Virus record (IMG/VR): IMGVR_UViG_3300008987_000001
DNA: 64,000 nucleotides
From: a virus
Taxonomy: Duplodnaviria; Heunggongvirae; Uroviricota; Caudoviricetes
Direction: 5' to 3' (one strand)
Shown: positions 1 to 61,599 of the stretch, piece after piece
How positions within the stretch are numbered: the stretch's first letter is position 1
Layout: the number at the start of each line of letters is the position of its first letter
Notes under the pieces: generated by a model
The model's database searches: none
Told to the model about the DNA's origin: nothing
The model's input: the letters and a program-made list of their open reading frames with translations, nothing else
Program-made: the position numbers and the translations under genes

Positions 1-2059
1 AACCATTACAGAAGTCGGAGAAGGATACGTTCAGACAAGCGAAGGCTCCAAAGTTCCGACAACCGGGTGGAAGTATTTAATTAATCAGACGGTGTTTGAT
101 GGGAACGCCGGGGCTGATGTGAGTTGTGATATAACGAGCATCGGGGGGCGGTTATTTCTGAATGGAATCACATACACGAATTCAACAACGTACGGAGTAA
201 GTACGGTTGACACACTCTGTAATATTAATTATTGTATCTTTCATACCACAAAGGCAATTACATCAAATCATGGTGCAAATTTAGTTTTAGGTAATTCGGC
301 AATTGTTTTGGGAAAATCTCAGGTAATCTCAATAAATTACGATTCTGGGTGCGTATGCGCAAATACATTAATATCTGGAGATTCTGCGACGTATTTATTG
401 ATGATAAATACGGGGAGTGAACTTAATATATATTATTGTGGTCTTTTTGGTGGTACATATGCCATTACGGATTATACACCAGAAACACTGGCGGTTATAC
501 GGTCTTGTTACATCGATTCAACATGTACAACTGGCGCTTATGGTTACAACATAACTCTCACATCATGCACCAACAATGCTGCAACACCCGTGTATAATTT
601 GACAAGTGGGGGAAGTATTGAGGAATGGGATGGTCAGGCATTACCCAGTATTGATGATGCAACAGGCGGGCAAGTGCTGGCGTTAAAGTCTGACAAATCG
701 GCACTGGAGTTTAACTCAGTTGTAACTATTGGTGATATAGGTAATATTACAATTGTTGGGCCAGAGAGCGGTGGAACTTCAAAGTCGGAGTTTGAAGGTG
801 CTCCTGACAATTCTGTTGCAGGATTTTCGTCTGTTTTGTTACGAGGCAGAGCCCTTGCAACCGAAACCCCGGCATTTATATCGTTCTATAACAGAACCGT
901 GGCAGGAGCCAGTACAAAAATTGCAGGCGTTACTGCTGTTGCCGATGAAAATAGTTATGTAAAGGGTCACCTTTCATTTAGAACCACCGCATCATCAGAG
1001 GCTGAACGTGCAACCATTTCAGAATTGGGAATTAATCTGCTGGCCGGTAGTTATCTATTAAACGGTGTGGCACTTGCAGCATCAGATGTTGGGGCGGCAT
1101 CTTCGACAACTGCAACCACGAGTATTTATGTTGATAAAGCAGCGACTGGCGCTGGGACTGGTGTTGATTGGACAAACGCATTTACAACCATTCAGGCGGC
1201 AATTACCTCTCTTCCGGCGATTATAAACCACGCGGTTACTATCTATGTTAGGAAAGGGTCTAGTGCCTATTCAGAGTCTCCGGTCCTTCAGCGTGTGGTT
1301 GCAGGAGGATCAATTACAATTCGGGGGGAGTTTGTGTGGTATGGGACAAATGCAAGCTCTAAAACCGGTAAAATCGATTTGAATGCTGCTGATCCGGGGT
1401 ATGCAGACAAGGCAAGTATTGCATCAGGAGACAAGGTTTTAATTGTTGTATACTCCGGGACGGCTGAAGCCTCTGCACCGGCTGCATCATATGAAGATAC
1501 GGTTGCTTCAGTGTCAGGAGACGAAATCACCCTGACAACCAATACCGGAGTAGCATTTACCACTGCGGCTACGTATGTGATTGCAAAAACCGCAATTGCA
1601 GGTGACATATCTGTAAATAACACCAATGGAGTTACGATCGAAGGCCTCGATATTTCCGGTGCAATTGGAATTTCCCTGTCTAATGCCAGGAATTGTGTAA
1701 TAAATGGGAATTTTATCACCGTTACGTCAAAAGGAATTTATGCTGCTGATATGGTTGCAGCAACAGCAACCCGGAATAACATAACATCAACTACTAATAA
1801 TGCAATGGGTCTCCAAATCATCCGGATGTCTAATGTCTCAACTAACTTAAACAGGATATCGTTGACTGGCACTGGAACCAGAGGGATTTATGCGCAGTTT
1901 CTTGCATACGCGACGTTCTGGTATAATCACATCGACGACGCAGTGACTGGCGTTCAGGTCGCCACAAATGCAGTCATCAATGAGGCCAGTAAAAACCTGA
2001 ATGACGCGACCACTCCGAAATCTCCTGCATCCAGCAGCGATGGGGCATATATTTCATGA
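1..2059 (+). CDS. Receptor-binding / tail-fibre-like protein with parallel beta-helix-type repeats; 5'-partial (reading frame open to window edge, the GTG at 92 is only the first in-frame start)
   Basis: Frame 2 has no stop between nt 2 and 2059. Gly/Ser/Thr/Asn-rich repeats (e.g. NITSTTNNAMGLQIIRMSNVSTNLNRISLTGTGTRGIYA) typical of right-handed beta-helix fibres. Shares a WDG.ALPS...ALEF.SV module with the fibre at 2513-4453. Confidence 0.5.
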   Translation, partial: TITEVGEGYVQTSEGSKVPTTGWKYLINQTVFDGNAGADVSCDITSIGGRLFLNGITYTNSTTYGVSTVDTLCNINYCIFHTTKAITSNHGANLVLGNSAIVLGKSQVISINYDSGCVCANTLISGDSATYLLMINTGSELNIYYCGLFGGTYAITDYTPETLAVIRSCYIDSTCTTGAYGYNITLTSCTNNAATPVYNLTSGGSIEEWDGQALPSIDDATGGQVLALKSDKSALEFNSVVTIGDIGNITIVGPESGGTSKSEFEGAPDNSVAGFSSVLLRGRALATETPAFISFYNRTVAGASTKIAGVTAVADENSYVKGHLSFRTTASSEAERATISELGINLLAGSYLLNGVALAASDVGAASSTTATTSIYVDKAATGAGTGVDWTNAFTTIQAAITSLPAIINHAVTIYVRKGSSAYSESPVLQRVVAGGSITIRGEFVWYGTNASSKTGKIDLNAADPGYADKASIASGDKVLIVVYSGTAEASAPAASYEDTVASVSGDEITLTTNTGVAFTTAATYVIAKTAIAGDISVNNTNGVTIEGLDISGAIGISLSNARNCVINGNFITVTSKGIYAADMVAATATRNNITSTTNNAMGLQIIRMSNVSTNLNRISLTGTGTRGIYAQFLAYATFWYNHIDDAVTGVQVATNAVINEASKNLNDATTPKSPASSSDGAYIS

Positions 2060-2068
2060 GGTGAAAAA

Positions 2069-2341
2069 ATGTTTATTATTTTTGATAAAACAACAAAAAT
2101 TATTTATTCGCGTGGTTCTGGGACTCCTGAAGAATCCGGGAACAAATTGTATTTGGACGGTAAACCAATCTGCAACAATTTGTCTGTGTGCGGATGGAAA
2201 TACATTGCAGATCAAAAGATTGAACAGGATAGTGAGGGGGATTGCATTTTCGACGCGGATTACTATGAGACTGTAACCCCTACTGACAGATTGGCAGATA
2301 TTGAAGCAGCACTGTTAGATCTTGCAGAGGCGATATTATGA
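2069..2341 (+). CDS. Small acidic protein, putative fibre chaperone/assembly factor (paralog of 7168-7497)
   Basis: GAGGTGA RBS 5 nt upstream of the ATG. C-terminus DRLADIEAALLDLAEAIL resembles the C-terminus ERLDAVELAILELV of ORF 7168-7497. Sits immediately after a fibre gene. Confidence 0.35.
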   Translation: MFIIFDKTTKIIYSRGSGTPEESGNKLYLDGKPICNNLSVCGWKYIADQKIEQDSEGDCIFDADYYETVTPTDRLADIEAALLDLAEAIL

Positions 2342-2469
2342 GCGAACATTGGAAAAACATCATATTTTCGCGGTATGATGCAGATGCAATTGATGCAGAA
2401 AAAGTTAGGTCATACGTGCCGAAACTGATTACGCAGGATGAGTGTGATTGGATTTTAGGGGCTGTGTGA
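2338..2469 (+). CDS. Unannotated 43-aa micro-ORF (MSEHWKNIIFSRYDADAIDAEKVRSYVPKLITQDECDWILGAV), paralog of 7497-7631
   Basis: ATGA start/stop overlap with the upstream gene. Shares the SRYDA...KITQDECD.I.G pattern with the second micro-ORF. Confidence 0.35.
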   Translation: MSEHWKNIIFSRYDADAIDAEKVRSYVPKLITQDECDWILGAV

Positions 2470-2476
2470 TCATGAC

Positions 2477-2484
2477 ATATATAA
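2477..2484 (+). promoter_or_regulatory. TATA-like box (ATATATAA) with a downstream GGTGA RBS before the 2513 fibre gene
   Basis: Member of the recurrent CTTATATA-type motif found upstream of many genes in this window. AGGTGA lies at 2501-2506, 7 nt before the ATG. Confidence 0.4.
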
Positions 2485-2512
2485 ATCACATTTTTAAACA
2501 AGGTGATACACC

Positions 2513-4453
2513 ATGACAACATATAGAGTGTGGAATGGAACATCGTGGGAATATATCGATAATCAAAATTATGATGCACGATATTTACTACGTAGTGAGT
2601 TGGGTGCAGCAGAAGGTACTTCTTCATTAGATTCATCTGGACACATACCTACTGAACAATTACCAAGTAGTATTACCGGGGCGGTGAGTTATCAGGGAAC
2701 CTTTGATCCAACAAGTGGATCCCCAACTCCTGCAGCCCAAGGATATTACTATGTAAGTGATGGAGTAGGCACAATTGATACTACATCCTTTGCAACTGGT
2801 GATTGGCTTGTATATCGTGATGATACTACATGGGATAAAATTGCCAATAGTAGTGCTAGTATTACATGGTCTAATATATCTGATAAACCTGCAGGTTATA
2901 CACCGGAATCACATGGTAATGAAGCACATGATGTAGTTTATGCCGTGACAAGTGATATCACATATGAGACGCTTAACACAAATGGAGATGTGGGGGTTAG
3001 TGCAGGACAACTCGCCATTGGTAATCATACCCATAGTGATTTACAACCAATTGATGGAGATCTCACAGCAATCGCTGCATTAAGTGGAAGTGCAGGATTA
3101 CTTCGCAAGACTGCATCTAACACATGGACACTTGATACTAACACATATATTACATCATTAACTAAAGCACCCGATTCAACCTTATGGGATGGTACTGCAT
3201 TACCATCATTTACCGACAATGAGTTGAAGTATATAAGATTGAATGCCGGTGGTGATGCTCTTGAATTTAGCAGTGTTTCCATTGCAATAAATGCCACACA
3301 ATGGGATGGAGTAGCACGTCCAGTATTAACTGATAATGCACTAAAATATCTACGTGTTAATACTGATGCAAGTGCCCTTGAATTTGCAACTGTAAGTGGG
3401 GGAGATGGAACTTGGGGTAGCATTACTGGAACCATATCAGATCAAACTGATTTATATAGTGAATTTGCAACAGTTGATGATAGCAGGTTTACTGATGCCA
3501 GAACACCAACTGCTCATAATCTAATTGATACAACCGGGCACTCTGTTAGTGGACTTACCATTGGGCATTTCCTGAAAGCGACTGGAGCAACAACCTATGC
3601 ATTTGGTGCTCATGGTTTAACTGCCAGTGATGTAGGTGCTCAACCAGTAGATGATGAATTAACGTCACTTGCCGGATTATCACTTACTGGGAATGGTGGA
3701 AAGGTTATATCTGTTAAATCTGATGTTTCTGGATTTGAATTAACAACTCCTGCAACTGGTGGAGATATCACATCTGATGGAAACTGGGTTGCTGCAGGTG
3801 ATCTCATTGTTGGAACTGGTGAAAATACTGCAGCGATTTTAACAAAAGGAACTGAAGGACAGGTTCTCAAAGTTGGATCATCAACTCTTGAATGGGGTGC
3901 AGAAACAACGTATTCTCTTCCAACTGCCGCATCAGATACTCTTGGTGGAGTAAAAATTGGAACAGGTATATCAATTGCTGCCGGAGTAATTACACCAGAT
4001 ATTAATGGACTCACATTACTTGATGAGGCTCCAGCAGATGGAGATTATTTTGCAATATATGATACATCCGGGACTGCACTCAAAAAGGTTGCTGCATCTA
4101 ATGTGGGTGGATCGTCTGGTGGGGGTATTACATGGAATGAAGTCACAGGCACTACACAGGCTGCTGCCGTTGATAATGGATATATCTGTAACAATGCAGC
4201 ATTGGTGACTGTAACGTTACCATCTACCTGTGCATTAGGAAAGACCATCAGAGTTGCTGGTAAGGGTGCTGGGGGATGGAAAATTGCCCAAAATGCAAGT
4301 CAGCAAATCCATTTCGGTGATCAGTCTACAACATCTGGAACTGGTGGATCTATATCGTCCGGGTACAAGTACGATGCGATAGAACTGATATGTATTACTG
4401 CTGACACGACATTCCTTGTCATATCCGCAGTTGGAACGATGGATGTGGTCTAA
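2513..4453 (+). CDS. Tail-fibre / receptor-binding protein (GNHTHS HxH motif, repeated WDG..LP..D..LKY...ALEF modules)
   Basis: 646 aa, Gly/Thr/Ser-rich. HxH motif as in long-tail-fibre tips. Internally repeated ~40-aa module shared with ORF 1-2059. Confidence 0.5.
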   Translation: MTTYRVWNGTSWEYIDNQNYDARYLLRSELGAAEGTSSLDSSGHIPTEQLPSSITGAVSYQGTFDPTSGSPTPAAQGYYYVSDGVGTIDTTSFATGDWLVYRDDTTWDKIANSSASITWSNISDKPAGYTPESHGNEAHDVVYAVTSDITYETLNTNGDVGVSAGQLAIGNHTHSDLQPIDGDLTAIAALSGSAGLLRKTASNTWTLDTNTYITSLTKAPDSTLWDGTALPSFTDNELKYIRLNAGGDALEFSSVSIAINATQWDGVARPVLTDNALKYLRVNTDASALEFATVSGGDGTWGSITGTISDQTDLYSEFATVDDSRFTDARTPTAHNLIDTTGHSVSGLTIGHFLKATGATTYAFGAHGLTASDVGAQPVDDELTSLAGLSLTGNGGKVISVKSDVSGFELTTPATGGDITSDGNWVAAGDLIVGTGENTAAILTKGTEGQVLKVGSSTLEWGAETTYSLPTAASDTLGGVKIGTGISIAAGVITPDINGLTLLDEAPADGDYFAIYDTSGTALKKVAASNVGGSSGGGITWNEVTGTTQAAAVDNGYICNNAALVTVTLPSTCALGKTIRVAGKGAGGWKIAQNASQQIHFGDQSTTSGTGGSISSGYKYDAIELICITADTTFLVISAVGTMDVV

Positions 4454-5413
4454 ATGGCCAAACAATCTGCTTTTTACGAACCGCCATCTGATTCCCAGAC
4501 GTATTACCGCTCAACGGGATACTGGTCAATTGGTATTGGTATTGATCGGGGTATTATCGCGGGTGGAACCACTGGATCCGTGAGCAATGTCATTGACTAC
4601 ATCACCATATCACTTGCAGGGAACGCTACTGACTTTGGTGATCTGACAGTTGCACGAAGTCAACTTGGCGGGGCAGCATCATCAACTAGGGGTATAATTT
4701 TTGGAGGAACAACTGGATCGGTAAGCGATGTAATTGACTATGTAACAATTGCTACAGTTGGTAACGCGACAGATTTCGGAGATTTGGATGCTGCACGGCG
4801 TGGTGTATCTGGGTGTTCAAATGAGACAAGAGGATTGCAGGTTGGAGGATATACCACTGAAGCAGTCAATGTAATTACCTATGTTACTATAGCAACAACG
4901 GGTAATGCAACCGATTTCGGAGATTTAAGTGCAGTAAAATATTTTACATCAAGTTTGGCATCATCTACAAGGGGGATTGCTGCGGGTGGATATGATGCAG
5001 TAGATGTTATTGAGTATGTGACTATTGCTACAACCGGAAACGTGACGAATTTTGGTGATCTATCTACTGGAAGAGATTTGTGTGCAGGGTGTAGTTCATC
5101 AGTTCGCGGATTGATTATTGGTGGATTGAATAGTGGAGACACGTATCTGGATAGCATTGAGTATGTAACAATTGCTACAACAGGCAATGCTGCGTCTTTT
5201 GGAAGTTTGAGTGCTACACGCGGGTATTCTGCAGCAACATCAAACGCATTACGTGGAATCATTGCAGGTGGATTGAATTCAAGTGCAGAATATCTGAATG
5301 TAATTGAGTATGTAACAATTGCTACAACAGGCAGTTCAACTGATTTTGGCGATTTGACAGTATCAAGAAGCATCTCTGCTGGATTATCAGATTGTCATGG
5401 TGGGCTCGTATGA
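4454..5413 (+). CDS. Repeat protein: six ~48-aa blade-like repeats (core GG..S.VIDY[IV]TIATTGNATDFGDL), possible Kelch-like beta-propeller; C-terminus SDCHGGLV
   Basis: ATG abuts the stop codon of the fibre gene. Six full repeats are visible in the translation. Tandem paralog follows. Confidence 0.55.
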   Translation: MAKQSAFYEPPSDSQTYYRSTGYWSIGIGIDRGIIAGGTTGSVSNVIDYITISLAGNATDFGDLTVARSQLGGAASSTRGIIFGGTTGSVSDVIDYVTIATVGNATDFGDLDAARRGVSGCSNETRGLQVGGYTTEAVNVITYVTIATTGNATDFGDLSAVKYFTSSLASSTRGIAAGGYDAVDVIEYVTIATTGNVTNFGDLSTGRDLCAGCSSSVRGLIIGGLNSGDTYLDSIEYVTIATTGNAASFGSLSATRGYSAATSNALRGIIAGGLNSSAEYLNVIEYVTIATTGSSTDFGDLTVSRSISAGLSDCHGGLV

Positions 5414-6330
5414 ATAAGCAATCCATAACGTATGAGGCAAATGCAGGGATACCATTGAAACGTAAGAACGGGCAATGGGGATTGACCGGGGGTATTGGCA
5501 GAGGCATCTTTGCAGGAGGATATGTATCTGCATATTCTAATGTCATTGATTACATTACGATTGCGACAACTGGCAACGCGACAGATTTCGGAGATTTGAC
5601 TGTCGCTAAGATGTTTTTAGGGTGTCCATCTTCATCAACACGGGGGTGTTTTGGTAGTGGCGATCCAAGCAATGTAATTGATTATATTACGATTGCGACA
5701 ACCGGTAATGCTACAGATTTTGGTGATTTAAGTGTATCACGATATGGACTTACTGCATGTTCCAACGAAACTCGTGGATGTTTCGCTGGTGGAAATGGGC
5801 CAAGTAACGTAATTGATTACATAACTATCGCAGTAAAAGGCAATGCTACAGATTTTGGAGATTTAACTCGATCAAACCTATATTTAGCAGGATGTGGATC
5901 GTCAACTCGTGGGGTGTTTGGTGGTGGGCATACAACAGTAAATGTCATTGATTATATTACGATTGCCACTACTGGGAATGCAGTGGATTTTGGAGATTTG
6001 ACAGTTGGTAGAGCAATAATGCAAGCGTGCTCATCATCTACCAGAGGTGTTTGGTTAGGTGGTACTAATGGATCATATCTTAACACGATCGATTACATTA
6101 CCATAGCATCTATTGGCAATGCGACCGATTTCGGAGACTTGCCCGCAACAACATTGAGTAATGATGGTGCAGCAACATCGAATGGGATTCGGGGAGTTGC
6201 ATATTTTCGCACACTTACTGGATATACTAGGTTACAATATGTAACTATAGCAATTACTGGAAACAGTTCTAATTTTGGAGAATTATCAGTAACACGATAT
6301 GGACTTGGTGCCTGCTCTGATTGTCATGGA
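4550..6330. repeat. About 12 degenerate tandem DNA repeats of ~144 bp underlying the two repeat-protein genes
   Basis: Reiterated nucleotide core gt/aattga(c/t)ta(c/t)at(a/t)ac(g/c)attgc(g/t)ac(a/t)ac(t/c)gg(c/t)aa(c/t)gc(g/t)aca/tgatttcggagatttga. Confidence 0.5.
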
Positions 6331-6342
6331 GGACTGGTCTAA
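5410..6342 (+). CDS. Second repeat protein (paralog of 4454-5413); probable ATG at 5410 overlapping the upstream stop (ATGA). The ORF track starts at a TTG at 5392.
   Basis: Same 48-aa repeat and the same C-terminal CSDCHGGLV. Confidence 0.55.
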   Translation: MNKQSITYEANAGIPLKRKNGQWGLTGGIGRGIFAGGYVSAYSNVIDYITIATTGNATDFGDLTVAKMFLGCPSSSTRGCFGSGDPSNVIDYITIATTGNATDFGDLSVSRYGLTACSNETRGCFAGGNGPSNVIDYITIAVKGNATDFGDLTRSNLYLAGCGSSTRGVFGGGHTTVNVIDYITIATTGNAVDFGDLTVGRAIMQACSSSTRGVWLGGTNGSYLNTIDYITIASIGNATDFGDLPATTLSNDGAATSNGIRGVAYFRTLTGYTRLQYVTIAITGNSSNFGELSVTRYGLGACSDCHGGLV

Positions 6343-6380
6343 ACATGACATTATATGTAGGCAATGGAGAAGTGTAAACA

Positions 6381-7199
6381 ATGAATAGTTTAGCTATTGT
6401 AGAAGAGACTGCGATGAAGTCATTGGCATCTCCCGAATATTCCGGGATGTTAGCCAAAATCGAGGAATCTGCACTGGAGATAAACCAAACTACCCAGATT
6501 TTTCAAAAGACTCAAAGTCAGTTCATGGATAACATGATGACAGTGTCTCACCCAACTCCATTTCGGAATTTACGGCAGATACTAGCTGAAATGAAAAAAT
6601 CACGGCAGGCAATGGGTGAGGCATACTTTAACATCGAAAAGAAGAAGATCAAGATTCGAAAACTCCAGAAACAACTCGAATCATATACGGATCCGCTTGA
6701 CCGGGAAGAGGTTGAACTCAAGATCCGTGAGGCTGAATGGCAGATTGAATGTATCATGGAAAATGTGGGTGGTGCAATCAGAAAACTGGCAAATTATACT
6801 GCCCAGTTTAATCTCATTAAGGGCCAGTTAACTGATTTATCCGAACAGACCTTCGAGGAGGAAGAGGAACGATACCACATTATGAAAGCCTTTGAACAGG
6901 GCATTTGTGCTGCCCGGAGTCATGGTGGATATATTGACGAAGGGAACCAGATTTATTTTACCCAGATTGGTATCAATGGAACGGTTGCACAGGTAGAGAT
7001 GACCAATTATCTGAACTGGGAAGCAACACAACTGCACAATCAACGTGAGATAACTCATGAGGACCAGATGATGTGGCTGAACGCCATGGCTGATAAGTTC
7101 AAAGGGTGTTCGAAAGCGTATGCAGAATACAAAGGGATGGATTTGAATACAGATTATGCACTATTAGGTGATCAGCGTGAGAAAACTACTCAAGTATAA
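6381..7199 (+). CDS. Hypothetical protein, coiled-coil-rich (fibre/baseplate-associated?)
   Basis: GGAG RBS 9 nt upstream. Long charged heptad-like stretches. Lies inside the fibre cassette. Confidence 0.35.
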   Translation: MNSLAIVEETAMKSLASPEYSGMLAKIEESALEINQTTQIFQKTQSQFMDNMMTVSHPTPFRNLRQILAEMKKSRQAMGEAYFNIEKKKIKIRKLQKQLESYTDPLDREEVELKIREAEWQIECIMENVGGAIRKLANYTAQFNLIKGQLTDLSEQTFEEEEERYHIMKAFEQGICAARSHGGYIDEGNQIYFTQIGINGTVAQVEMTNYLNWEATQLHNQREITHEDQMMWLNAMADKFKGCSKAYAEYKGMDLNTDYALLGDQREKTTQV

Positions 7200-7497
7200 A
7201 TTAATTAATGGACGGGTTCCGGATTACATTGAGGACGGTGGCTATTTTGCAGATGGAGACTGGCTCATCGGAGTTTCCAAACCTCTTGATGAGATTGAAG
7301 TGCCAACTGGAACCACATGGGTATCGCAGGCAGAACTCGAATCAATGATAACTGCGGCAAACGAAAATCTCGAAGAAGGCATGGAACCTCTAACCCGTGA
7401 GATATTTGAGGACGATAAGAGGATGTATCGGTATTACGGGCTTACAAAGGATGAACGGCTCGATGCGGTCGAACTTGCCATACTGGAGTTGGTCTGA
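7168..7497 (+). CDS. Small acidic protein, paralog of 2069-2341 (putative fibre chaperone)
   Basis: C-terminal similarity RL.A.ELA.L.L to ORF 2069-2341. Confidence 0.35.
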   Translation: MISVRKLLKYKLINGRVPDYIEDGGYFADGDWLIGVSKPLDEIEVPTGTTWVSQAELESMITAANENLEEGMEPLTREIFEDDKRMYRYYGLTKDERLDAVELAILELV

Positions 7498-7631
7498 TGC
7501 CTGAACCATGGGTGACAATTTTACAGTCACGGTATGATGCAAAAGTGATTAATGAAACATATGTAAAGTCGTTTGTGGTGAAAGGAAAGATCACACAGGA
7601 TGAGTGTGATGAGATTATCGGTACGAGTTAG
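7497..7631 (+). CDS. Unannotated 44-aa micro-ORF (MPEPWVTILQSRYDAKVINETYVKSFVVKGKITQDECDEIIGTS)
   Basis: TGATG overlap with the upstream stop. Paralog of 2338-2469. Confidence 0.35.
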   Translation: MPEPWVTILQSRYDAKVINETYVKSFVVKGKITQDECDEIIGTS

Positions 7632-7680
7632 GATTTGAAAAGTTAACGTCATTAAACTTATATAGAAGTAGAACATATAT

Positions 7681-7745
7681 TATGGTGCCCAACGGCGAAA
7701 ATGCATAGGGAGGAATCTTTTCCTTCTTTCATTTTTGTCAAGAGT
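7681..7745 (+). repeat. Intergenic structured repeat, copy A (TATGGTGCCCAAC box, hairpin GGAGGAA/TTCCTTC, T tract, TCAAGAG)
   Basis: See findings. Partial 3' copies at 8033-8056 and 8143-8166. Confidence 0.5.
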
Positions 7746-8136
7746 AAATGTAATGTCTTGCTCTATTTTTAATCGTCCCACTCTAATTCATCGTTAATTT
7801 GGAAAATCAGCCAAATGGTGAAGGCGCTGACAACCGCTGCAATTAAAAAAGATATTATCATGGCTTCAACAATCATAGTTTAGTCTTGTGTATCCATAGA
7901 ATGTTCATTGCGATAAGCAGTCCTATTTCAAAATAAAAAATGTCAGGGATCATGTTAATCTTTTAATTGTCCACCACACTATTGTTCCGGCTGCAAATCC
8001 ATAAATAAACCATTAGATGTCCATAATTAATAATTCCTCATTTTTGTCAAGAGTAAAATTGTTTTTATCGTAAATTTGTGGCCCACCATAAAATGCATAT
8101 ATACAATACTATTATGAATGCCATAAATAGTATCAT

Positions 8137-16516: not shown

Positions 16517-17560
16517 TCATGTAATCGCAGTTATTACCTCACGAGCGACATGATAAAACACTTCCTTGCCATCCCACAGACCCTTAATCACCCTACTATC
16601 AACTCGAATGGATTCACCTTTACTACTAACCAATTTTGTCATACAGTGGTATCGTTCATCACGAATCATGTCACCAAGCACCTGTATAATACTTGAACAA
16701 TCACCTACCTCATGGACAATAGTAATTGACTGACCAATCAGATTCCCATTAGGATAGCCAAGCCTCATTCTCACCGCATCATTTATTGCAAGTATACTAC
16801 CTTCAAGACCCACAACAAAAATCATATCGGTCATTTTATTAAAAAGAGTGCGAAAGTTTTCACGTTCAAGATCCAACTGTTGTTGTGATGATTCAAGTGA
16901 TGAGATTGTATGCATTAAACTATCATTTGAAGTTCTCAATTCTTCTCCATGAACTTCAAGATCCATGACCTTTGCTTCTAATTCCTGCTCAACTTCGAAT
17001 CTATATAATACATGCCCGAGATGTTTTCCAAGGGTTCTTAATATATCACATACATCATCAGAGATTTCAATATCATTAAATGCCCCAATATTGATACAAC
17101 CCTTTACTGCATTATTATACAGAATTGGAACAGATATTAGTGTTTTAATACCACCGAGCAATGATGCAGTTTCCTGATACTTCTGATCATAATGCTTAAC
17201 ATAAACTGGTTTTCCAAACTGAAATAATTCACGGAGTTCCGGACGCTCTATACATATTCGATTCAACGTTTCAATAGCATGAACAGGAACAAACTTTGTT
17301 GCCACGACCTCTGCTCTACGTTCATGAATTAAGTAGATGCCCCCAATATCAAAATTGACAAAATCTATTGCTGCTTCTAGTATACCCTGAACCAACTCTT
17401 TTTGAGTCTTTGATTCATTCGCCTTGACAATAATCCCATTAAATACTTTAAGACGACGATGTTCACGAGATATAACAGAATCCTTCTCATACAATTGATG
17501 AGACAGGCTTTTTATATTATTTATTTGTTCCGCAATCGCCATCGACATTAGCAAAGACAT
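16517..17560 (-). CDS. GAF + PAS sensor-domain protein lacking an obvious output domain
   Basis: N-terminal GAF-like region and a C-terminal PAS-like segment (MTDMIFVVGLEGSILAINDAVRMRLGYPNGNLIGQSITIVHE...). Confidence 0.5.
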   Translation of the reverse strand: MSLLMSMAIAEQINNIKSLSHQLYEKDSVISREHRRLKVFNGIIVKANESKTQKELVQGILEAAIDFVNFDIGGIYLIHERRAEVVATKFVPVHAIETLNRICIERPELRELFQFGKPVYVKHYDQKYQETASLLGGIKTLISVPILYNNAVKGCINIGAFNDIEISDDVCDILRTLGKHLGHVLYRFEVEQELEAKVMDLEVHGEELRTSNDSLMHTISSLESSQQQLDLERENFRTLFNKMTDMIFVVGLEGSILAINDAVRMRLGYPNGNLIGQSITIVHEVGDCSSIIQVLGDMIRDERYHCMTKLVSSKGESIRVDSRVIKGLWDGKEVFYHVAREVITAIT

Positions 17561-19654: not shown

Positions 19655-22600
19655 TCAATATCGTCTGTATCCATTATTACACACCGTAAAATCTCTTGTA
19701 AATGCAAAGTAGCCTAAATTAGTTGACTTGCAAATCTTTAGGGTCATGTCCATAAGACCGCGAGGATCTGGTTTCTGCTCACCGAGGTAAATGTTGCAAA
19801 TGTTTCCACCGTCGAGTATCGGGAAGAATGCCTGCTCAATACGAATCTTTTCAGCGATTTGAATATCAGCATCTACCGGGACGTGCGTACCATTTGTATA
19901 GTAAATTGGCAAATCGCGTGATCCGGTCTCGGCATACTTTTTAATGGCAGCACGAACATCGCCTTTAACAAACTTATGAGCATCGCCATAGTTAAGTAGA
20001 TCAAGCACCGCGAACCTTTGTGCTGTCGTTTCTGCTGGAGTTCTTGAAAATGATAACTTAATATCTTGTTCGGTGGTCATTTTTTTGCAATATTTATTGA
20101 GTTCATTGCATATCTTCAATGTAAACATATGTGCTCCATTATCAGAATACAATGGTTTACCAAGCATAATCTCGCATACCTCATTCATACCAACGATTCC
20201 GATAGTGAATACGTAATCTGATAGGTCTAGGAATGGTGGAATTAATTTTCCAGTGATAGAATCTCGTTTTATATGTGTTGGAAATGGGAGCATGCCATTA
20301 TCTATACACTCGGTTATCCAACCGCGTTTAATTTTAAAAATCTCAATGGCTAATTGAATGTTTTGTTTGCACAATTCTATGAAAGTATCTATGTTACCAG
20401 TGGATTCATATGCATATCGTGGCATGTTGAGCGTTATTACCTGCGCAGAACCCATGGTAAAGTGCTTTCCATCTCTAAAGTATAGTTTGTTATCGAAATC
20501 TGGATCTCCTTCCTCGCCGCTTGAAAACGAAAATGCGCAATTCGAAGATACCATTCCTTGGGCAGTAATAAATAAATGATCTGTTACTTCTACTGGATCA
20601 TATACATCCCCATCATACGGAGATGTTTCTATCTTAACAATTGGTGATTCCCATTTACACTCTTTATTAATACACGCGAAGAAAGATTTAACTTCTTCTT
20701 GTTTATTAAGGGTTAATATATGTCTAGTTTTTCTGTTTGGTCGTTTATCTTCAACGATTGAATACTTAAAATCATATCCAAGGCTACCTGTCAATAACAA
20801 TACCCCTTCAGCTAATGGTTTTGAAATTGTATTCATTTCAATACGAAGAATTTTTGATTTTGTTCCATTCTTACGAAGGCATCCATCGCCACGATAATAT
20901 CCATTTATAAATGCCCATTTACATTTAATTGGGGCATTAAGAATGAATGTCGGAACTGTCATATCGCGACCTTTCATCGCAACACCAATTTCAATAAACC
21001 AATCATGAATCTTATTGCTGTGAATGAATACCGATGTTCCAGCACCCTTATTTACAGACTGTAATTTGGCATCATATCCAAACACATTTTTGATTATAGA
21101 AACGGTTTTATTTATTAAATCAACCTCATGTGATCCATAGCACCACATTAAATGTCTATTTGTTCCATTTGGACTGATCGTGCTACTTCCTTCTGCAGCA
21201 AATAAACCAAGTAAATAACAAAATTCAACATCATTTTGTTCTGATAAAAACTTTGGTATTTTACCATTCGTTGGTAATTCACAATTTATAAAGGCTACAT
21301 CGCCAATAGATAAATTCTTTAATTCTAATATTCCACGATTCTTTATCGGAATTTTATGATCAAATGTACCACATATTCTTCTTCCACCATCTATTTTAAT
21401 AGTATACACATATTCGTTTATATGGTGTATCATAACATGACTGAATCCATGATGTCCAGATGGTGTAACAACAACATCATCATGTTTGAGTTCTGATATT
21501 GGTATGATACGAACCATTCCATTGTCAACAATCTGAATTAACGTATCTGGTAACAACGAACACTGCATGCACGAAATGCCTTTTCCGGCCCCACGATACT
21601 GTGGAATCATGTTATCAAAATATGGGGTTCCAAATTTACTTGCTAATTGAAATGCTGAAAGATATAATTCCCGAATACTTGGGTAATCACCAGACACCCC
21701 ATGCTCATCCTCATATTCCATCTTTGCTATGTATTCGGGTTCGAACGCAATCTCTGGTTTTGGGAAGTAAAATGGTTTGCCTGCGTAATCACCTGCGAGC
21801 ATCACATCCATAAATGCCTTGAATAGCAAACGATTCTCGCGTTCGAACTCTCCATAAGTTTCTGGACCAACATTGCCCTTATAAATCGCAGGCTTGTCGT
21901 TCCACATTTCAGGTATTGAAGGCGATAACTGTACGGAACTGAAAATCTGCTGGCCGCCTCTCGAAGTAAGCATCTGCGTCATTTCAAAGATAAAACATTG
22001 CATATTCTGTTTAATTTCTTTATATGTACAATCTTTGAAATATGGTGACAAAAAGCACAGGAAATTATAGAATCCCTCGCCCCCGGCAAAGTTAACTTGC
22101 CCACTGCCTAAAGTCTTTGATGCGTGGAGTATTGCAACTTCTGGGCGCATTGCCGGTCCTGCAACTGATGTGTGCTCTCCTGTACCATCTCCTGTGAATC
22201 CATAATAAAATACATACCGTAGATCCCAATCAGCACAAAAGTATCTACTTGTGATGTATTCTAAATCATGAATGTGTAAATTACCATTAAGGTGTGCTTC
22301 AGATAAATGCTCTGGGAGCATTAAAAGTGCTTGTTCCTTTGCCAGTTGATCGGCTTTTCTTTTGTGTACGGTTTCTGGGGAACGTTGTAAATTGGCGTTA
22401 TCTCCCTTTCCACCACCAATATCAGTCATTCTCGCATCATACACTGGCATCCCAACACGAGTATATTTGCGCCGACATTCATTCATATCACGTTCTAAAA
22501 ACTTGGTATTAACAAACTCCCTAATAAGTGGGCCTGTTACTGGATCGATTTTTAGAACACTTAATGTATTATATACATCATCAACTATATCTTCAATTGC

Positions 22601-22696
22601 TTTTCCGGTGCACCCAGTTTCTTTACGCACAGAATCGATAACTTTATTTCTATCAAATGATTCAATAGATCCATCATCCTTCCTTACTCTTACCAA
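19655..22696 (-). CDS. Ribonucleotide reductase catalytic body with N-terminal ATP cone, interrupted by an intein; lacks its own glycyl-radical C-terminus (see 22923-23228)
   Basis: ATP-cone motif VRKDDGSIESFDRNKVIDSV. Extein is 672 aa after removing the 341-aa intein. A glutaredoxin and an NrdD-type GRD are encoded directly upstream on the same strand. Confidence 0.6.
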   Translation of the reverse strand: MVRVRKDDGSIESFDRNKVIDSVRKETGCTGKAIEDIVDDVYNTLSVLKIDPVTGPLIREFVNTKFLERDMNECRRKYTRVGMPVYDARMTDIGGGKGDNANLQRSPETVHKRKADQLAKEQALLMLPEHLSEAHLNGNLHIHDLEYITSRYFCADWDLRYVFYYGFTGDGTGEHTSVAGPAMRPEVAILHASKTLGSGQVNFAGGEGFYNFLCFLSPYFKDCTYKEIKQNMQCFIFEMTQMLTSRGGQQIFSSVQLSPSIPEMWNDKPAIYKGNVGPETYGEFERENRLLFKAFMDVMLAGDYAGKPFYFPKPEIAFEPEYIAKMEYEDEHGVSGDYPSIRELYLSAFQLASKFGTPYFDNMIPQYRGAGKGISCMQCSLLPDTLIQIVDNGMVRIIPISELKHDDVVVTPSGHHGFSHVMIHHINEYVYTIKIDGGRRICGTFDHKIPIKNRGILELKNLSIGDVAFINCELPTNGKIPKFLSEQNDVEFCYLLGLFAAEGSSTISPNGTNRHLMWCYGSHEVDLINKTVSIIKNVFGYDAKLQSVNKGAGTSVFIHSNKIHDWFIEIGVAMKGRDMTVPTFILNAPIKCKWAFINGYYRGDGCLRKNGTKSKILRIEMNTISKPLAEGVLLLTGSLGYDFKYSIVEDKRPNRKTRHILTLNKQEEVKSFFACINKECKWESPIVKIETSPYDGDVYDPVEVTDHLFITAQGMVSSNCAFSFSSGEEGDPDFDNKLYFRDGKHFTMGSAQVITLNMPRYAYESTGNIDTFIELCKQNIQLAIEIFKIKRGWITECIDNGMLPFPTHIKRDSITGKLIPPFLDLSDYVFTIGIVGMNEVCEIMLGKPLYSDNGAHMFTLKICNELNKYCKKMTTEQDIKLSFSRTPAETTAQRFAVLDLLNYGDAHKFVKGDVRAAIKKYAETGSRDLPIYYTNGTHVPVDADIQIAEKIRIEQAFFPILDGGNICNIYLGEQKPDPRGLMDMTLKICKSTNLGYFAFTRDFTVCNNGYRRY
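20540..21562 (-). mobile_element. Intein with LAGLIDADG homing-endonuclease domain inside the RNR gene (aa 379-719)
   Basis: N-terminal Cys (CSLLPDTLIQIVDNG block A). LAGLIDADG motifs FCYLLGLFAAEGS and KWAFINGYYRGDGC. C-terminal GMVSSN followed by +1 Cys. Confidence 0.6.
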
Positions 22697-26807: not shown

Positions 26808-27410
26808 ATGTATTTATGTGGTTTTTGTGGAAATGAAATAGATTTGCATCACAGAGATCAATTATGTTCATGTGGTGTCCCATTTAGACAAGGAATAATA
26901 TACAAACATGTGATAAATTATAACAATCTATCTATATACAATACATCATCAACTGATATTATACATCAAAAATTTAAAGATCTCCAACAATACACTTGCT
27001 CAGAATATTATGATGATGCAACAGATCATGAAGTTATGCATCAAGATTTATGTAACTTAACATTCGAAAATGAATCATTCGACATGGTAATTACACAAGA
27101 TATTATCGAACATGTAATTGATCCATTTAAAGCACTCAATGAAATAAATAGAGTATTGAGACCTAATGGATTTCATTTATGGACAATTCCAATTGACGAA
27201 GATATTGAAACAGCATCATGTACATATGAACTTTATCATGGAGATCCATTAAGGGAATGTGGTATAAAGGTATATACACTATTTGGATTTGATATAATTG
27301 ATATGATACCAAACACATCAATAATTGAAAAATATATTATATTTGAAAAAGTAGAAAATTTAAATTACAATTTATATATTTTAAAAACTATAAAAACTCC
27401 TTGTGAATGA
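26808..27410 (+). CDS. SAM-dependent methyltransferase (Methyltransf_11/23-like)
   Basis: DMVITQDIIEHVIDPFKALNEINRVLRPNGFHLWTIP. Confidence 0.45.
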   Translation: MYLCGFCGNEIDLHHRDQLCSCGVPFRQGIIYKHVINYNNLSIYNTSSTDIIHQKFKDLQQYTCSEYYDDATDHEVMHQDLCNLTFENESFDMVITQDIIEHVIDPFKALNEINRVLRPNGFHLWTIPIDEDIETASCTYELYHGDPLRECGIKVYTLFGFDIIDMIPNTSIIEKYIIFEKVENLNYNLYILKTIKTPCE

Positions 27411-28401
27411 TGTCCTGGCATACTCCATCCAATGCTCTATTTATTGCATCATTGCGACAAAACTGTGGGCAGTCATTGTTGGGTACAGTATTAAACACTT
27501 CATACATTTGCTCACTTTTTAGCACATCAGTAATACTTTGCTCATTTAGATTACCAATGTGATATGCTTTGTTTTGTCTATGGTGGATACATGCCCACAT
27601 TTGATTATCTGCAGTAATGACCGTGTTAAAGTACATGCCATGACACCGTGTATAGGGACGTTCAATCTCACCTACATGATCATACTTGTGGGTTGATGCA
27701 CGGATATTCAGTTTTGGGAATAAATCTTGTCCTTGCTTTATATATTCACTTACATCATTACATTCGCCAGTGAATGGTCGTAATTGAGCAAAATCAACAT
27801 GTAGACTATCAGCACGCTCAAAGAAATCCATGATGCCTGATAAAGTAGATTCACCAGTCAAGTATCCAAGACCAACAGATGTAATAGATTCGCTCACTGC
27901 ACGTAGTTGCATTAACTCATCAACATTATCAATTACATGCCAAAACTCTTCTTCCTCCATGCCATGGGTTAACTTATACATTGCAGGTGTTCCAGCATCT
28001 AATGATACTCTAAAGTATGTACAGCAATCAAGTATAGCACATCGAACATAATCATTGCACATAGCAAGTCCATTAGAGTTAAGTCCAATACTGATACCTG
28101 CATTCTTGAACATGTATAGTGCTTTGACAAAGTGAGGACTCATCATTGGCTCTCCCCCACCACTAATAACCACTGACTGAACATTCAAATTGCTCATTTG
28201 ATCAACAATTGAAGTGATTTGTTCAAGAGTTAACTCTGCGCCATTCTCCTTTACTCCCACACATTTTGGACATCGATTGTTACACTTGTTAGTTAAATCT
28301 AACTCGAATGATATGAGGGTTTCATGACCATGCACATAATTGTGGATTTTATCCTGATACTGTAGGATTTTCTCATTGGCATTGAAGTTGTTTAATTTCA
28401 T
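27388..28401 (-). CDS. Radical-SAM enzyme (probably sugar-modifying; not NrdG-like)
   Basis: CNNRCPKC = CxxxCxxC at residues 39-46. 337 aa, embedded in the glycan cluster. Confidence 0.55.
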   Translation of the reverse strand: MKLNNFNANEKILQYQDKIHNYVHGHETLISFELDLTNKCNNRCPKCVGVKENGAELTLEQITSIVDQMSNLNVQSVVISGGGEPMMSPHFVKALYMFKNAGISIGLNSNGLAMCNDYVRCAILDCCTYFRVSLDAGTPAMYKLTHGMEEEEFWHVIDNVDELMQLRAVSESITSVGLGYLTGESTLSGIMDFFERADSLHVDFAQLRPFTGECNDVSEYIKQGQDLFPKLNIRASTHKYDHVGEIERPYTRCHGMYFNTVITADNQMWACIHHRQNKAYHIGNLNEQSITDVLKSEQMYEVFNTVPNNDCPQFCRNDAINRALDGVCQDIIHKEFL

Positions 28402-58110: not shown

Positions 58111-59127
58111 TTAAACATATTGATCTACCTCATAAATATAATCATACTTTTTTGCTTTATACATAGACCAGTCGATGTTATCTTTAATCATTGAACGAAA
58201 TATCGTACTACTTACATGTGGATATTCTGTCATTAAATACATGATATCGCAAGTTAATCCCATATCACGATAGATGCTTGCAAGGTTCTTTTCATATGTT
58301 AGATCATTCTGATCACGGATACCCCGAACAAGTGTTATGTCTCCACCATTTTGACACTGAAATGTTTTAATTAAGTCTGTAAGTGATCCTGTAAACACAA
58401 CTATCCGGTGAAATGGTAAGGCTCTACGAAGTTCTTTAATATCAGTGCCTTCTGGAACTGCTACTATTAATTGATCAAAGTGTTTATCGGCTTGCTCTAA
58501 TACTGATAGATGACCAATGTGGAATGGATTAAATGAACCAGCATACACACCAATATGGGGTTTATAAGATTGAAAGAATTCAATGTTATGTTGAAATATC
58601 TGATTATCCAGTTGAAGATCTGTTACACCATCTCGAATTAGGTTACGTAAGAAATCATTACGATTTGAAACTAACTCACCCCATGGAACAAATTGATATT
58701 CCTTAAGAATTCTAATCCCATCTGAAATTGATCTACCCCCATCATGGATGAAATACCATAAGTCGAGAGTTCGGATAACTTGAACTGCTTCCCAGATAGA
58801 ATCATCTACTTTACAGGTATATGTTTTAGGATCAGTATAATGAATTAATGATTTGATAATTGACTTATCATCCTCATTCATTTGTGGGCATAGCGTATCT
58901 ACTAGGTCTGCTGATCGTGCTTCGTTATTAGATTTTCTCGGATCGTATATTGCATCGTGTAAATCTACTGCAATACGAATAAGATGCCAATAGCGTTCAG
59001 ATACATTCCATTCATGGGACATAAGCATAGTATTCATAAATGATACATGCATGATGTTATGATAGTATCTATGTGGTTCATGATAACGATCTATAACATC
59101 AGGGACATCTTTTAATGTAACTATCAT
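58111..59127 (-). CDS. HD-domain phosphohydrolase fused to a nicotinamide/nicotinate mononucleotide adenylyltransferase (NMNAT/NadD-like) domain
   Basis: N-terminal H...HD (IMHVSF ... AVDLHDAIYD). C-terminal VYAGSFNPFHIGHLSVL, the GxFxPxHxGH nucleotidyltransferase motif. Confidence 0.5.
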   Translation of the reverse strand: MIVTLKDVPDVIDRYHEPHRYYHNIMHVSFMNTMLMSHEWNVSERYWHLIRIAVDLHDAIYDPRKSNNEARSADLVDTLCPQMNEDDKSIIKSLIHYTDPKTYTCKVDDSIWEAVQVIRTLDLWYFIHDGGRSISDGIRILKEYQFVPWGELVSNRNDFLRNLIRDGVTDLQLDNQIFQHNIEFFQSYKPHIGVYAGSFNPFHIGHLSVLEQADKHFDQLIVAVPEGTDIKELRRALPFHRIVVFTGSLTDLIKTFQCQNGGDITLVRGIRDQNDLTYEKNLASIYRDMGLTCDIMYLMTEYPHVSSTIFRSMIKDNIDWSMYKAKKYDYIYEVDQYV

Positions 59128-60219
59128 ATCATCATTCCATAAAATACGGATCCAATATCATTTTCAATTCATCATATTTCATGTGGAAACGACATGGGCA
59201 TTTTTGTACAATTGGATGTGTCAATGGATATGACCAGAGTTCCTTTGCAGTTCGTTCTCCATATATTACATAATCCATGGCAGCCATTGTACAACTATAA
59301 TTATCATTTGTCCATACACAGGTGTTACAGGGTCGATGATATCGTTCTGCAATAGGCAATATCTCAATCATAATATTACATCCTATCAATTAATAAGAAT
59401 AATATGAGCATCAATGTAGCACCAATGGCAATACCAAGTCCAAATGCACTACCTACGGCACCATATACATTGACACCCTCACATAACCACACACCAGTAT
59501 CTGTCAAGTGACAATAGTAACAACTATCACTGACACTGGTATAAATTGGATTTGTAATATTCATAAGGTAGCCACCCCGAGTTTAATCAATGATATCATA
59601 ATGATGAATGTCATGCAACATACTAACCAAAATCGGCGGGGATCCCACCATTCGAGGGTGATATCAGTGAGTGAATCTAATATACATGCCACACTATATA
59701 ATGGACTTGATAGTTAAAAAAGGTTAGTATACAAGATCAGATATAGTTCTTCACTTTACCATCTTCAATATCATAGCGTTTATTGTCTATTGTAATGTCT
59801 CCTGTTGCATCTTGATACATATCACGGATAAGTTCATTGATATAATCTTCATCAAGATCATCATCAATAGTATAGTTCACGTACATTTCAATTAATACAT
59901 GTTTAAGTGTCATGATTGGATACCTTCTTTAAGTTTAATTATCTCATCAATTGTGGTGTAATACTTGCACTTTGGATAATCAATTGGGTAGGCTGGTAGC
60001 ATTGCTTTTCCTGGCCAGTGTGCAAGTGTCGGCATTCTATGTGCTCTACATGAATAATCTGGACATCTATCATATAATATGCAATTATTACAGCACTCCG
60101 ATGGCTCAATAATGGTATAGCCTTCGGGTATTGGGTTAATAGATAGATCGAGGTGTGAAGGATCTACATACTTATACTTCCCTGATTGTGGGGGTGTAAA
60201 GATGTAGTTTAGGATCTTA

Positions 60220-61599
60220 TCAAACATATGACATTATCCTATTACGAATAGTATCTAAATCCTCTTCGATTAGTAATTTACCATTTTCATAGACTAATGG
60301 TAAATTAAACTTACCAGGTTTACTTTCCTTCCCAATAGTAGTTTTGTTTACATCTATCCACTCATTGTTTCGTTTGATGCAACTTGCTTTGATTGCCCAA
60401 CGATTCGTATCACGATTATGTTTTTGGAGTAATGATCCACCACTACCAAAGATAATGTTACTTGGTGCAAAGTGATGAATACTCACTACCTCATGGAGTA
60501 TTTGACTTATCGTATGGGCATCTATACCATCACCATAGATGACGCCGACACGTGAATTTAATACTTTGTAACCACGTTCATTTTTACTCCCACCATATGC
60601 ATCCCATAGATAGTTGAGAATTTTTACAGATACTTTAACTGGATTCCCAGTATCTGGCCTGATTACGCACTTGTCCCGACGATTAAGGATCAATTCTTTG
60701 AGATCGTTGCAGAAATATTGCTTCACTGCATGTTCCCAGTCATACGAATCACATACTAGACTAATTACTGTTGCATTACCAAATCGCTTATCAGATTCTT
60801 CAATTATATGTCTATAGGCTTCGCATTCATGTTCTTGACCCCAACTAGTAATTGTGCTATGTTCTGCAGCAATAACCGATCCACCACAAACATCACTATT
60901 GTAATACCAACGGGCTTTTTCTATAGATGGAATATTATCTGTACCTTGGAAGATTAATAAATGACCTAGCCCACATAATTCGGCACTGGTTAAACTTGAT
61001 GCACCACGAAGTCCAAAGTCATTTAAGTGAAATGGACTTACCTGTTCACCTGCTACATCTGCATACTTTTTGATTCGTTTGTATATATCATAAGATATGG
61101 TTGCAGTATTGGACATAGCATAACAATGCATGAGTAATGACTCTACGTAATTAGTTAACCATGGAACTTGTTCATCTGTATTCTCAATTGCCAACACTGG
61201 AGTTCCTGGTTTAACTATAGTTCCTTCTGGTAATGCATAAATACGCAGGGGTAATGATCCACTATGTTCATTAATAATGTGATTCCAACCATCACGATTG
61301 AAAAAGTTATTACTGCCCATAGAATTTATTACATGTTCAGCCTCTGATACCATTTCACGAGTTAGATAGGTGTGTATAAAATTGTAATGTTTTAATATGA
61401 ATTGTAATCCACACCATACAATGTCCTCATACTGTGCTCCAACACGCGGTTCCATGTAACTATACACTACTTGAGTATCTGGGGGATACTGAAAATAGTG
61501 GGTTGCTTTGTAATAATCAGTTAGAGTTATAAAATTTCTATCTCTCATACGTCTCATCAACTTGTGATTGTGTAAGGGATTACATAGAGTATTACTCAT
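60220..61599 (-). CDS. Nicotinamide phosphoribosyltransferase (NAMPT/NadV family)
   Basis: N-terminal LTDYYKATHYFQYP ... VYSYMEPR typical of NAMPT/PncB. 459 aa. Confidence 0.55.
   Translation of the reverse strand: MSNTLCNPLHNHKLMRRMRDRNFITLTDYYKATHYFQYPPDTQVVYSYMEPRVGAQYEDIVWCGLQFILKHYNFIHTYLTREMVSEAEHVINSMGSNNFFNRDGWNHIINEHSGSLPLRIYALPEGTIVKPGTPVLAIENTDEQVPWLTNYVESLLMHCYAMSNTATISYDIYKRIKKYADVAGEQVSPFHLNDFGLRGASSLTSAELCGLGHLLIFQGTDNIPSIEKARWYYNSDVCGGSVIAAEHSTITSWGQEHECEAYRHIIEESDKRFGNATVISLVCDSYDWEHAVKQYFCNDLKELILNRRDKCVIRPDTGNPVKVSVKILNYLWDAYGGSKNERGYKVLNSRVGVIYGDGIDAHTISQILHEVVSIHHFAPSNIIFGSGGSLLQKHNRDTNRWAIKASCIKRNNEWIDVNKTTIGKESKPGKFNLPLVYENGKLLIEEDLDTIRNRIMSYV

Follow-up and report, generated by a model that had tools for sequence, protein, structure and literature searches.

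We analysed a 64,000-nucleotide stretch of a large uncultured phage (IMG/VR record IMGVR_UViG_3300008987_000001; the whole stretch is called the window here). The last part of its structural operon, positions 1–7631 on the + strand, holds two sets of fibre genes, each closing with a pair of small genes. The first gene of each pair encodes an acidic protein of about 100 residues (p90 in one set, p109 in the other), and the second is a micro-open reading frame (micro-ORF) encoding 43 or 44 residues (m1 and m2). The micro-ORFs are new, divergent members of the catalogued XkdX/SPP1 gp23.1 family. The gene pair very likely has a fibre-associated accessory role, and this role is probably the assembly or attachment of its specific fibre. 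Accessory pairs of this kind are widespread in phages of the PBSX, SPbeta, SPP1 and staphylococcal siphovirus kinds and in tailocins.

The arrangement is an ordinary one. What the window adds, from a large uncultured phage, is two divergent members of the XkdX family, together with a correction. The initial annotation of this DNA held that the micro-protein family appears undescribed, but the family is known as XkdX (PF09693 / TIGR01669) and as PHROG 134, and it is homologous to SPP1 gp23.1 (PDB 2XF5–2XF7). XkdX/gp23.1 is among the commonest phage small-protein families without an assigned function. Moreover, those who engineer the receptor-binding proteins of Gram-positive phages and tailocins routinely have to carry the downstream small ORFs along, for no established reason.

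The micro-ORFs m1 and m2

m1 and m2 are paralogues, and they are genuine, conserved and selected genes. The two proteins are 53% identical (BLASTP E=1e-13), and each start codon has a GAGG/GGAG Shine-Dalgarno sequence 7–8 nt upstream. The initial annotation gave all of its ORF coordinates correctly, and both of the overlaps that it described are present (ATGA at p90/m1, TGATG at p109/m2). A hidden Markov model (HMM) built from relatives finds exactly two XkdX-like ORFs in the six frames of the window. The description of the micro-ORFs as unannotated holds for the 60-residue ORF track on which the initial annotation relied, but not for the source database: the exact m1, m2 and p90 proteins were already among the Joint Genome Institute (JGI) gene calls on a 133,370-bp contig, with PF09693 precomputed for m2.

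The same layout recurs in related loci (designated here by L numbers), which come from anaerobic-digester and sludge metagenomes; only two of the p90-family loci are from IMG/VR. Immediately 3′ of p90 homologues (36–79% identical), a 42–46-residue ORF starts at or overlaps the stop codon in about 20 of the 24 readable loci, and these ORFs belong to several diverged sequence types. The exceptions are one low-coverage, frameshifted contig and a lineage (L009/L030) in which a 482-residue gene follows directly. An XkdX-like micro-ORF also follows the p109 homologues in L034–37 and L039. The m2 orthologue in L034 (1495–1632; also present in L035 and L036) has a TTG start and was not called by the source's gene caller, so XkdX-type genes are sometimes truly missed in annotations. 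Five relatives of m2 are 77–88% identical to it, and a tblastn search with m2 gave no match at E<=1e-3; at E<=10 its matches were weak, but they pointed to useful reference loci. The ratio of nonsynonymous to synonymous substitution rates (dN/dS) of m1-like micro-ORFs is 0.16–0.18 (11–12 loci; 0.16 at a dS of 0.70). The initial annotation had named a lack of conservation in relatives, or disruption there, as the finding that would count against it; what we found is conserved synteny and purifying selection.

Both micro-ORFs are short, and the L034–36 orthologue escaped a gene caller, as one might expect of chance open frames without a product. Nevertheless, we rejected that reading, to which we give next to no probability: m1 and m2 align with each other at E=1e-13, family HMMs match them, synteny is kept among diverged sequences, dN/dS is low, and both genes have ribosome-binding sites and start/stop coupling.

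Profile comparisons place both proteins in the XkdX family. m2 matches PF09693 (Phage_XkdX) with 26.7 bits (E=5.9e-6), above the gathering cut-off of 23.5 bits, and both micro-ORFs match PHROG 134 (m2 at E=6e-8). When a profile of the window-type micro-ORFs (A1) was compared by hhalign with SPP1 gp23.1 and two canonical XkdX proteins (A7), the two aligned over their full length of 42 columns with 95.9% probability (E=6e-9). A broader profile, A6, retrieves 2XF5, 2XF6 and 2XF7 from the PDB at E=1.1e-4, whereas phmmer with m2 alone returned only noise there. The position is also that of XkdX genes, which encode ~40–60 residues and follow a small protein 3′ of a tail-fibre gene in the late structural module. 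Three results weigh against the assignment. m1 scores 18.2 bits against PF09693, under the cut-off; the TIGR01669 equivalog model (cut-off 28.2 bits) gives 23 bits for m2 and no match for m1, so that the PGAP annotation pipeline would name neither of them XkdX; and the narrow profile A1, used alone in hmmsearch against gp23.1, reaches a non-significant E=1.3. Even so, to judge from the sequence comparisons as a whole, m1 and m2 are almost certainly XkdX-family genes.

The acidic proteins and their C-terminal helix

The initial annotation presented p90 and p109 as a conserved pair. Both are acidic, as it stated (isoelectric points (pI) 4.18 and 4.35), and the C-terminal motif that it noticed is real and specific within the window: among 267 stop-to-stop segments of at least 60 residues, only p90 and p109 carry it, as scored with a regular expression that was written post hoc, after the sequences had been seen. 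The rest of the pairing does not hold. BLASTP gives no alignment of the two proteins at E<=100, and hhalign aligns only their last 25 columns (DYYETVTPTDRLADIEAALLDLAEA with YRYYGLTKDERLDAVELAILELV; 78% probability, E=1.8e-5). p90 and p109 are not homologous overall; their common part is a predicted C-terminal amphipathic helix of ~25 residues, in which the hydrophobic residues have heptad spacing. The AF2 model of p90 has an all-beta N-domain (pLDDT about 90) and a terminal helix at residues 76–89, and that of p109 (pLDDT 72) has its C-terminal helix at residues 91–105. The start of p109 is probably GTG 7177, which gives a protein of 106 residues, because AGGTGA stands 5 nt before it, JGI calls a protein of that length and the family alignment (A5) begins there. 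From this start the gene overlaps the end of the preceding 272-residue gene by 23 nt.

Homology between the two cassettes is confined to the terminal helix and the XkdX gene, and the window is therefore a case of the same modular architecture used twice, not of a duplicated cassette as the initial annotation had it. The fibres of the two sets have in common only a repeat unit of ~30 residues, and in a DNA alignment of the cassette ends the identical runs are just 12–15 nt long, for which reason we rejected a recent duplication. The further claim that these are modular, fibre-associated cassettes stands: the micro-ORFs close fibre gene sets, and the genes of the first cassette travel together. 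Indeed, homologues of the C-terminal ~320 residues of fibre 1 lie directly 5′ of p90 homologues in ~12 relatives, which makes fibre 1, p90 and m1 a conserved trio.

The N-domains belong to two separate families. That of p90 comprises ~60 clusters at 90% identity, and that of the p109 N-domain 125 representative clusters, the majority of them without the terminal helix. Neither family has a significant match in Pfam, PHROG, NCBIfam, PDB sequences or folds; phmmer searches of the PDB with p90 and p109, and searches with profiles A2 and A5, returned noise only. A separate observation concerns a GWKY(I/L)..Q or W.YIDNQ motif on the + strand, which occurs in fibre 1 (62–91), in p90 (2192–2215) and at the N-terminus of fibre 2 (2540–2566). 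In p90 it occupies residues 42–49 and is near-invariant in the family; taken alone, it is not statistically significant.

No other element of the cassette is as constrained as the helix. Across the p90 family, dN/dS is 0.041 for the last 20 codons (dS 0.64) and 0.195 for the N-domain (dS 1.24). A dN/dS of 0.041 at a dS of 0.64 places the constraint on the protein rather than on the DNA. Moreover, family members whose N-domains are just ~50% identical carry an identical helix.

A helix of this kind is also a regular neighbour of XkdX genes. We compiled 16 C-termini of ORFs that lie 5′ of XkdX, including those of SPbetaL2, 268TH008 and SPP1 gp23. In fifteen of them an amphipathic stretch forms the end, in most cases preceded by a linker rich in Pro, Thr and Glu; in the remaining one, SPP1 gp23, the stretch is internal and precedes a Ser/Gly-rich tail. 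The post hoc motif is matched by 10 of the 16. The helix can also be encoded alone, in ORFs of 35–54 residues (L039 1153–1266; L022 ~1075–1182; SPP1 gene 23, L043 2930–3094). In L039 and L022 a helix-only ORF of ~35 residues is followed by a second XkdX copy, giving tandem helix-plus-XkdX pairs like gp23/gp23.1 of SPP1. Conversely, the p109-like protein of L038 lacks the helix and has no XkdX after it, a single case. In L002 (~700–760), DNA for RLDAVELAILELV is kept just 5′ of the XkdX gene but out of frame with the upstream ORF of 121 residues, which reflects either a mistake in the assembly or a scar left by recombination.

These observations raise the possibility that the helix binds XkdX, a suggestion we make tentatively. 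A stronger version seems to us rather unlikely: helix and XkdX would form an obligate two-part docking module, in which a universal XkdX oligomer binds a helix that is either fused to interchangeable, fibre-specific N-domains or encoded alone (as in SPP1 gp23, L039 and L022). Two points weigh against a functional pairing. The L009/L030 lineage keeps the fibre and the helix protein without an adjacent XkdX gene, and the co-occurrence of helix type with XkdX type may reflect linkage alone, since both lie on adjacent DNA. Were the docking module real, a single conserved hub could work for many fibres that are not related to one another, and tandem arrays of helix-plus-XkdX pairs would be possible. 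Neither the pairing rule nor the unannotated N-domain families of p90 and p109 were found in the literature open to search. The pairing is the sole observation here that goes beyond the textbook picture and the only part worth following up. It yields a testable hypothesis, in that the helix is the most constrained element, stands beside XkdX in almost every case examined and can be a separate peptide.

Possible roles of the gene pair

The first gene of each pair encodes a small acidic protein in which a variable, fibre-specific N-domain is joined to a short amphipathic heptad helix, and the second, translationally coupled to the first, an XkdX/gp23.1-family protein of ~45 residues. In the mechanism that we propose, the N-domain would recognize its own fibre or tailspike, and the C-terminal helix would dock onto an XkdX oligomer. 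The complex would then help the cognate fibre to fold, trimerize or attach while the tail is assembled, and most likely would not be retained in the virion. We lean slightly towards a transient chaperone over a virion component, because small proteins encoded beside fibres behave in this way in two analogous systems. The small ORF downstream of the Clostridium difficile receptor-binding protein PtsM improves its solubility and binding but does not co-purify with it (PMC9615553), and in F-pyocin two small genes follow each of the two fibre genes, yet the particles lack their products (bioRxiv 10.64898/2026.02.24.707460). Plaque type changes in the Bacillus phage Sam46 when the coiled-coil helix at the C-terminus of an XkdW-like protein is mutated (PMC8190038). 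Both 'chaperone' and 'adaptor' are labels that we infer for the small proteins.

By position, p90 and p109 fit the XkdW-like class: they have ~100 residues, are acidic, lie between a fibre gene and XkdX and end in a heptad helix. Several facts count against the proposed role. In sequence, p90 and p109 match neither XkdW nor DUF2977, and they have no significant match to any known chaperone family or fold. For XkdW (PF09636), p109 has no Pfam match, p90 gives noise only at E<=1, and none of 50 p109 relatives matches; the DUF2977 Pfam model matches neither protein at E<=1; and the classical tail-fibre chaperones (Tfa of Mu, lambda and P2; gp38 and gp57A of T4) give no match in sequence or fold. 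Furthermore, no experiment has established a function for any XkdX or gp23.1 protein. The structure of the gp23.1 hexamer gave no conclusive functional insight, and its presence in the virion is unknown (reviews PMC6316719, PMC7291167).

The foremost alternative to a transient assembly factor is a structural adaptor. The helix-ended protein and XkdX would stay in the virion for good, as a cap or bridge at the distal fibre or tailspike, and the variable N-domain might even take part in binding the receptor. The initial annotation had likewise called the small protein an adaptor. SPP1 gp22, encoded upstream of gp23, resembles in its fold the shoulder domain of a receptor-binding protein and is considered a likely tail component, and the N-domains are diverse and co-vary with fibre type. 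Against this, neither purified F-pyocin particles nor the purified C. difficile receptor-binding complex contains the comparable small proteins encoded downstream; the 109-residue protein and XkdX of Lactobacillus phage BH1 are not among the virion proteins named in the available part of its report; and we found no fold similarity of p90 or p109 to receptor-binding domains. We give the adaptor a low but appreciable probability.

A role at the DNA level is less probable still, although it would account for some of the same facts. The helix segment and the XkdX gene could be mainly shared DNA at which fibre modules are swapped, with any protein function secondary. The dS values of the helix (0.64) and the micro-ORF (0.70) are about half that of the p90 N-domain (1.24), which suggests a more recent shared ancestry of the helix/micro-ORF segment, and the lower dS together with the out-of-frame relic in L002, beside a different upstream gene, points to module exchange at the helix. 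Identical helices on N-domains only ~50% identical agree with this, as does L001, where the homologue of the 272-residue protein is followed by an unrelated, helix-ended protein of 83 residues (phmmer against the PDB: noise only) and then by XkdX. Yet synonymous changes accumulate while the amino acids are fixed (dN/dS 0.04 and 0.16), so that selection acts on the proteins, and the 12–15-nt runs common to the two copies in the window are too little for efficient homologous exchange. Moreover, exchange at this joint is compatible with a protein function alongside.

We also considered lysis-module or regulatory peptides, and rejected the lysis reading as very improbable. XkdX genes often adjoin holin and endolysin genes (they lie just 5′ of lysis genes in 268TH008, SPP1 and BH1), membership of a lysis cassette has been speculated (PMC8347963), and m2 is the final gene ahead of the operon terminator. 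But m1 is flanked by fibre genes on both sides and has no lysis gene nearby, the two proteins are acidic and lack a hydrophobic segment of membrane-spanning length, and in relatives the pair occurs in tandem arrays inside fibre clusters.

Gene layout and known systems

The features of the two gene sets are collected in the table below.

Table. Features of the two fibre gene sets and the end of the structural operon, in window coordinates
Feature	Position	Strand	Remarks
Fibre/tailspike 1	2–2059	+	Frame open from position 2; C-terminal part a right-handed beta-helix
p90, 90 aa, acidic	2069–2341	+	All-beta N-domain and C-terminal helix
p90 C-terminal amphipathic heptad helix, TDRLADIEAALLDLAEAIL	2282–2338	+	Near-invariant; hhalign match to p109 C-terminus
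m1, 43 aa, XkdX-family	2338–2469	+	ATG overlaps p90 stop (ATGA)
Fibre 2, 646 aa	2513–4453	+	N-terminus hits two 'minor tail protein' families, PHROG 1446 and PHROG 14
Two paralogous six-repeat proteins	4454–5413 and 5392–6342	+	PHROG 19111 and PHROG 27227, function unknown
272-aa protein	6381–7199	+	PHROG 1409; function unknown; directly 5′ of p109
p109/p106, acidic	7168 or 7177 to 7497	+	Likely start GTG 7177
p109 C-terminal amphipathic helix, KDERLDAVELAILELV	7447–7494	+	hhalign match to p90 C-terminus
m2, 44 aa, XkdX-family	7497–7631	+	ATG overlaps p109 stop (TGATG)
Terminator-like hairpin with T-run	7707–7728	+	End of + strand structural operon; genes beyond on − strand

The open frame of fibre 1 shows that the gene is truncated by the left edge of the window. 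Its match to the Pfam NosD beta-helix model (E=5e-5, 23.2 bits) falls just under the cut-off of 23.6 bits. The two six-repeat proteins are 53% identical; each consists of six repeats of ~50 residues (VIDYITIATTGNATDFGDL...) and ends in CHGGLV, and their sequences suggest that they are probably beta-propeller tail proteins. Their homologues lie directly 5′ of p109-like genes in L038 and L039, and the six-repeat proteins may therefore be the real binding partners of the p109 family. The 272-residue protein has no Pfam or PDB match, and phmmer searches of the PDB with it and with fibre 2 gave noise only; in L034–36 it is syntenic with the p109 homologue, immediately upstream. A megablast of window 1–8000 found no close relative in INPHARED, and we found no tandem repeats in the same interval.

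Beyond the operon, the remainder of the window carries genes for an intein-bearing NrdD, a family-B DNA polymerase (PolB), NAMPT, radical-SAM enzymes and glycosyltransferases. Two identical 20-mers (TTTACTCTTGACAAAAATGA) lie at 7729–7748 and 8038–8057 on the − strand, where none is expected by chance; they include a TTGACA box and precede small ORFs of the − strand, and so are probably a repeated promoter element. The anaerobic ribonucleotide reductase (RNR) gene nrdD (19655–22696, −) is split by an intein with a LAGLIDADG homing-endonuclease domain; in relative L005 the intein is instead in a class I/II RNR. Genes for a GAF-PAS sensor, a radical-SAM/SPASM enzyme, NAMPT and a cytidylyltransferase-like protein (16517–17560, 27388–28401 and 58111–61599, −) are auxiliary or regulatory and unrelated to the cassettes.

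How do the gene pairs compare with known systems? One likeness is to the F-type pyocin, where a pair of small putative chaperone genes comes after each of two fibre genes (PA0643–0645 and PA0646–0648). There, and for the small ORF of C. difficile PtsM, the small proteins either do not occur in mature particles or disappear on purification yet aid fibre folding. These genes are not homologous to those of the window, with which no sequence similarity was detected, and the analogy is one of gene order and proposed role only.

p90 and p109 resemble the XkdW-like proteins (PF09636; Sam46 gp25) and staphylococcal DUF2977, which are likewise acidic, have ~100–125 residues and lie between a fibre gene and XkdX. 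The XkdW-like C-terminal alpha-helix has heptad character, as in p90 and p109, and DUF2977 has a C-terminal coil and a pI of 4.5. We found no sequence match at E<=1 and no fold match that reached significance, and the N-domains of p90 and p109 form two unannotated families of their own. In an S. aureus phage the order is FibL, DUF2977 (125 residues) and an XkdX annotated 'putative chaperone' (PMC12323379), a label that Bacillus phage XkdX also carries; a paper on the S. aureus 80alpha baseplate does not discuss the small ORFs. L. rhamnosus phage BH1 has a 109-residue protein of pI 4.4 and then XkdX, with a 4-nt overlap (PMC6950654).

SPP1 gp23.1 (Pfam PF20787; PDB 2XF5, 2XF6, 2XF7), a 'putative chaperone' crystallized as a hexamer, is homologous to m1 and m2 over its full length. 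Ahead of it come gp22, which is small and globular and has a proline-rich tail, and then gp23, essentially an amphipathic helix. SPP1 thus encodes globular domain and helix in separate genes, whereas p90 and p109 carry the two fused.

There is, last, the XkdX family itself, named after xkdX of Bacillus subtilis PBSX. m1 and m2 diverge from it in having Cys where Tyr or Phe is usual (ITQDECD versus ITxEEY), and they come from a large anaerobic-digester phage (NrdD, PolB, NAMPT) rather than from a temperate phage of Bacillus or Staphylococcus. In other respects they are alike: the length of 43–44 residues, the signature W..I...Y......V...V..GkIT..E.d.I.G, the place in which they close the structural module, after a ~100-residue protein 3′ of a tail-fibre gene, and the overlapping start and stop codons. 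We confirmed the order of fibre, small protein and XkdX in the Bacillus phages SPbetaL2 and 268TH008 and in SPP1. More than one copy per element is also known: in a PBSX-like element of B. pumilus, the fibre, the ~100-residue protein and XkdX follow one another three times in tandem (PMC8347963).

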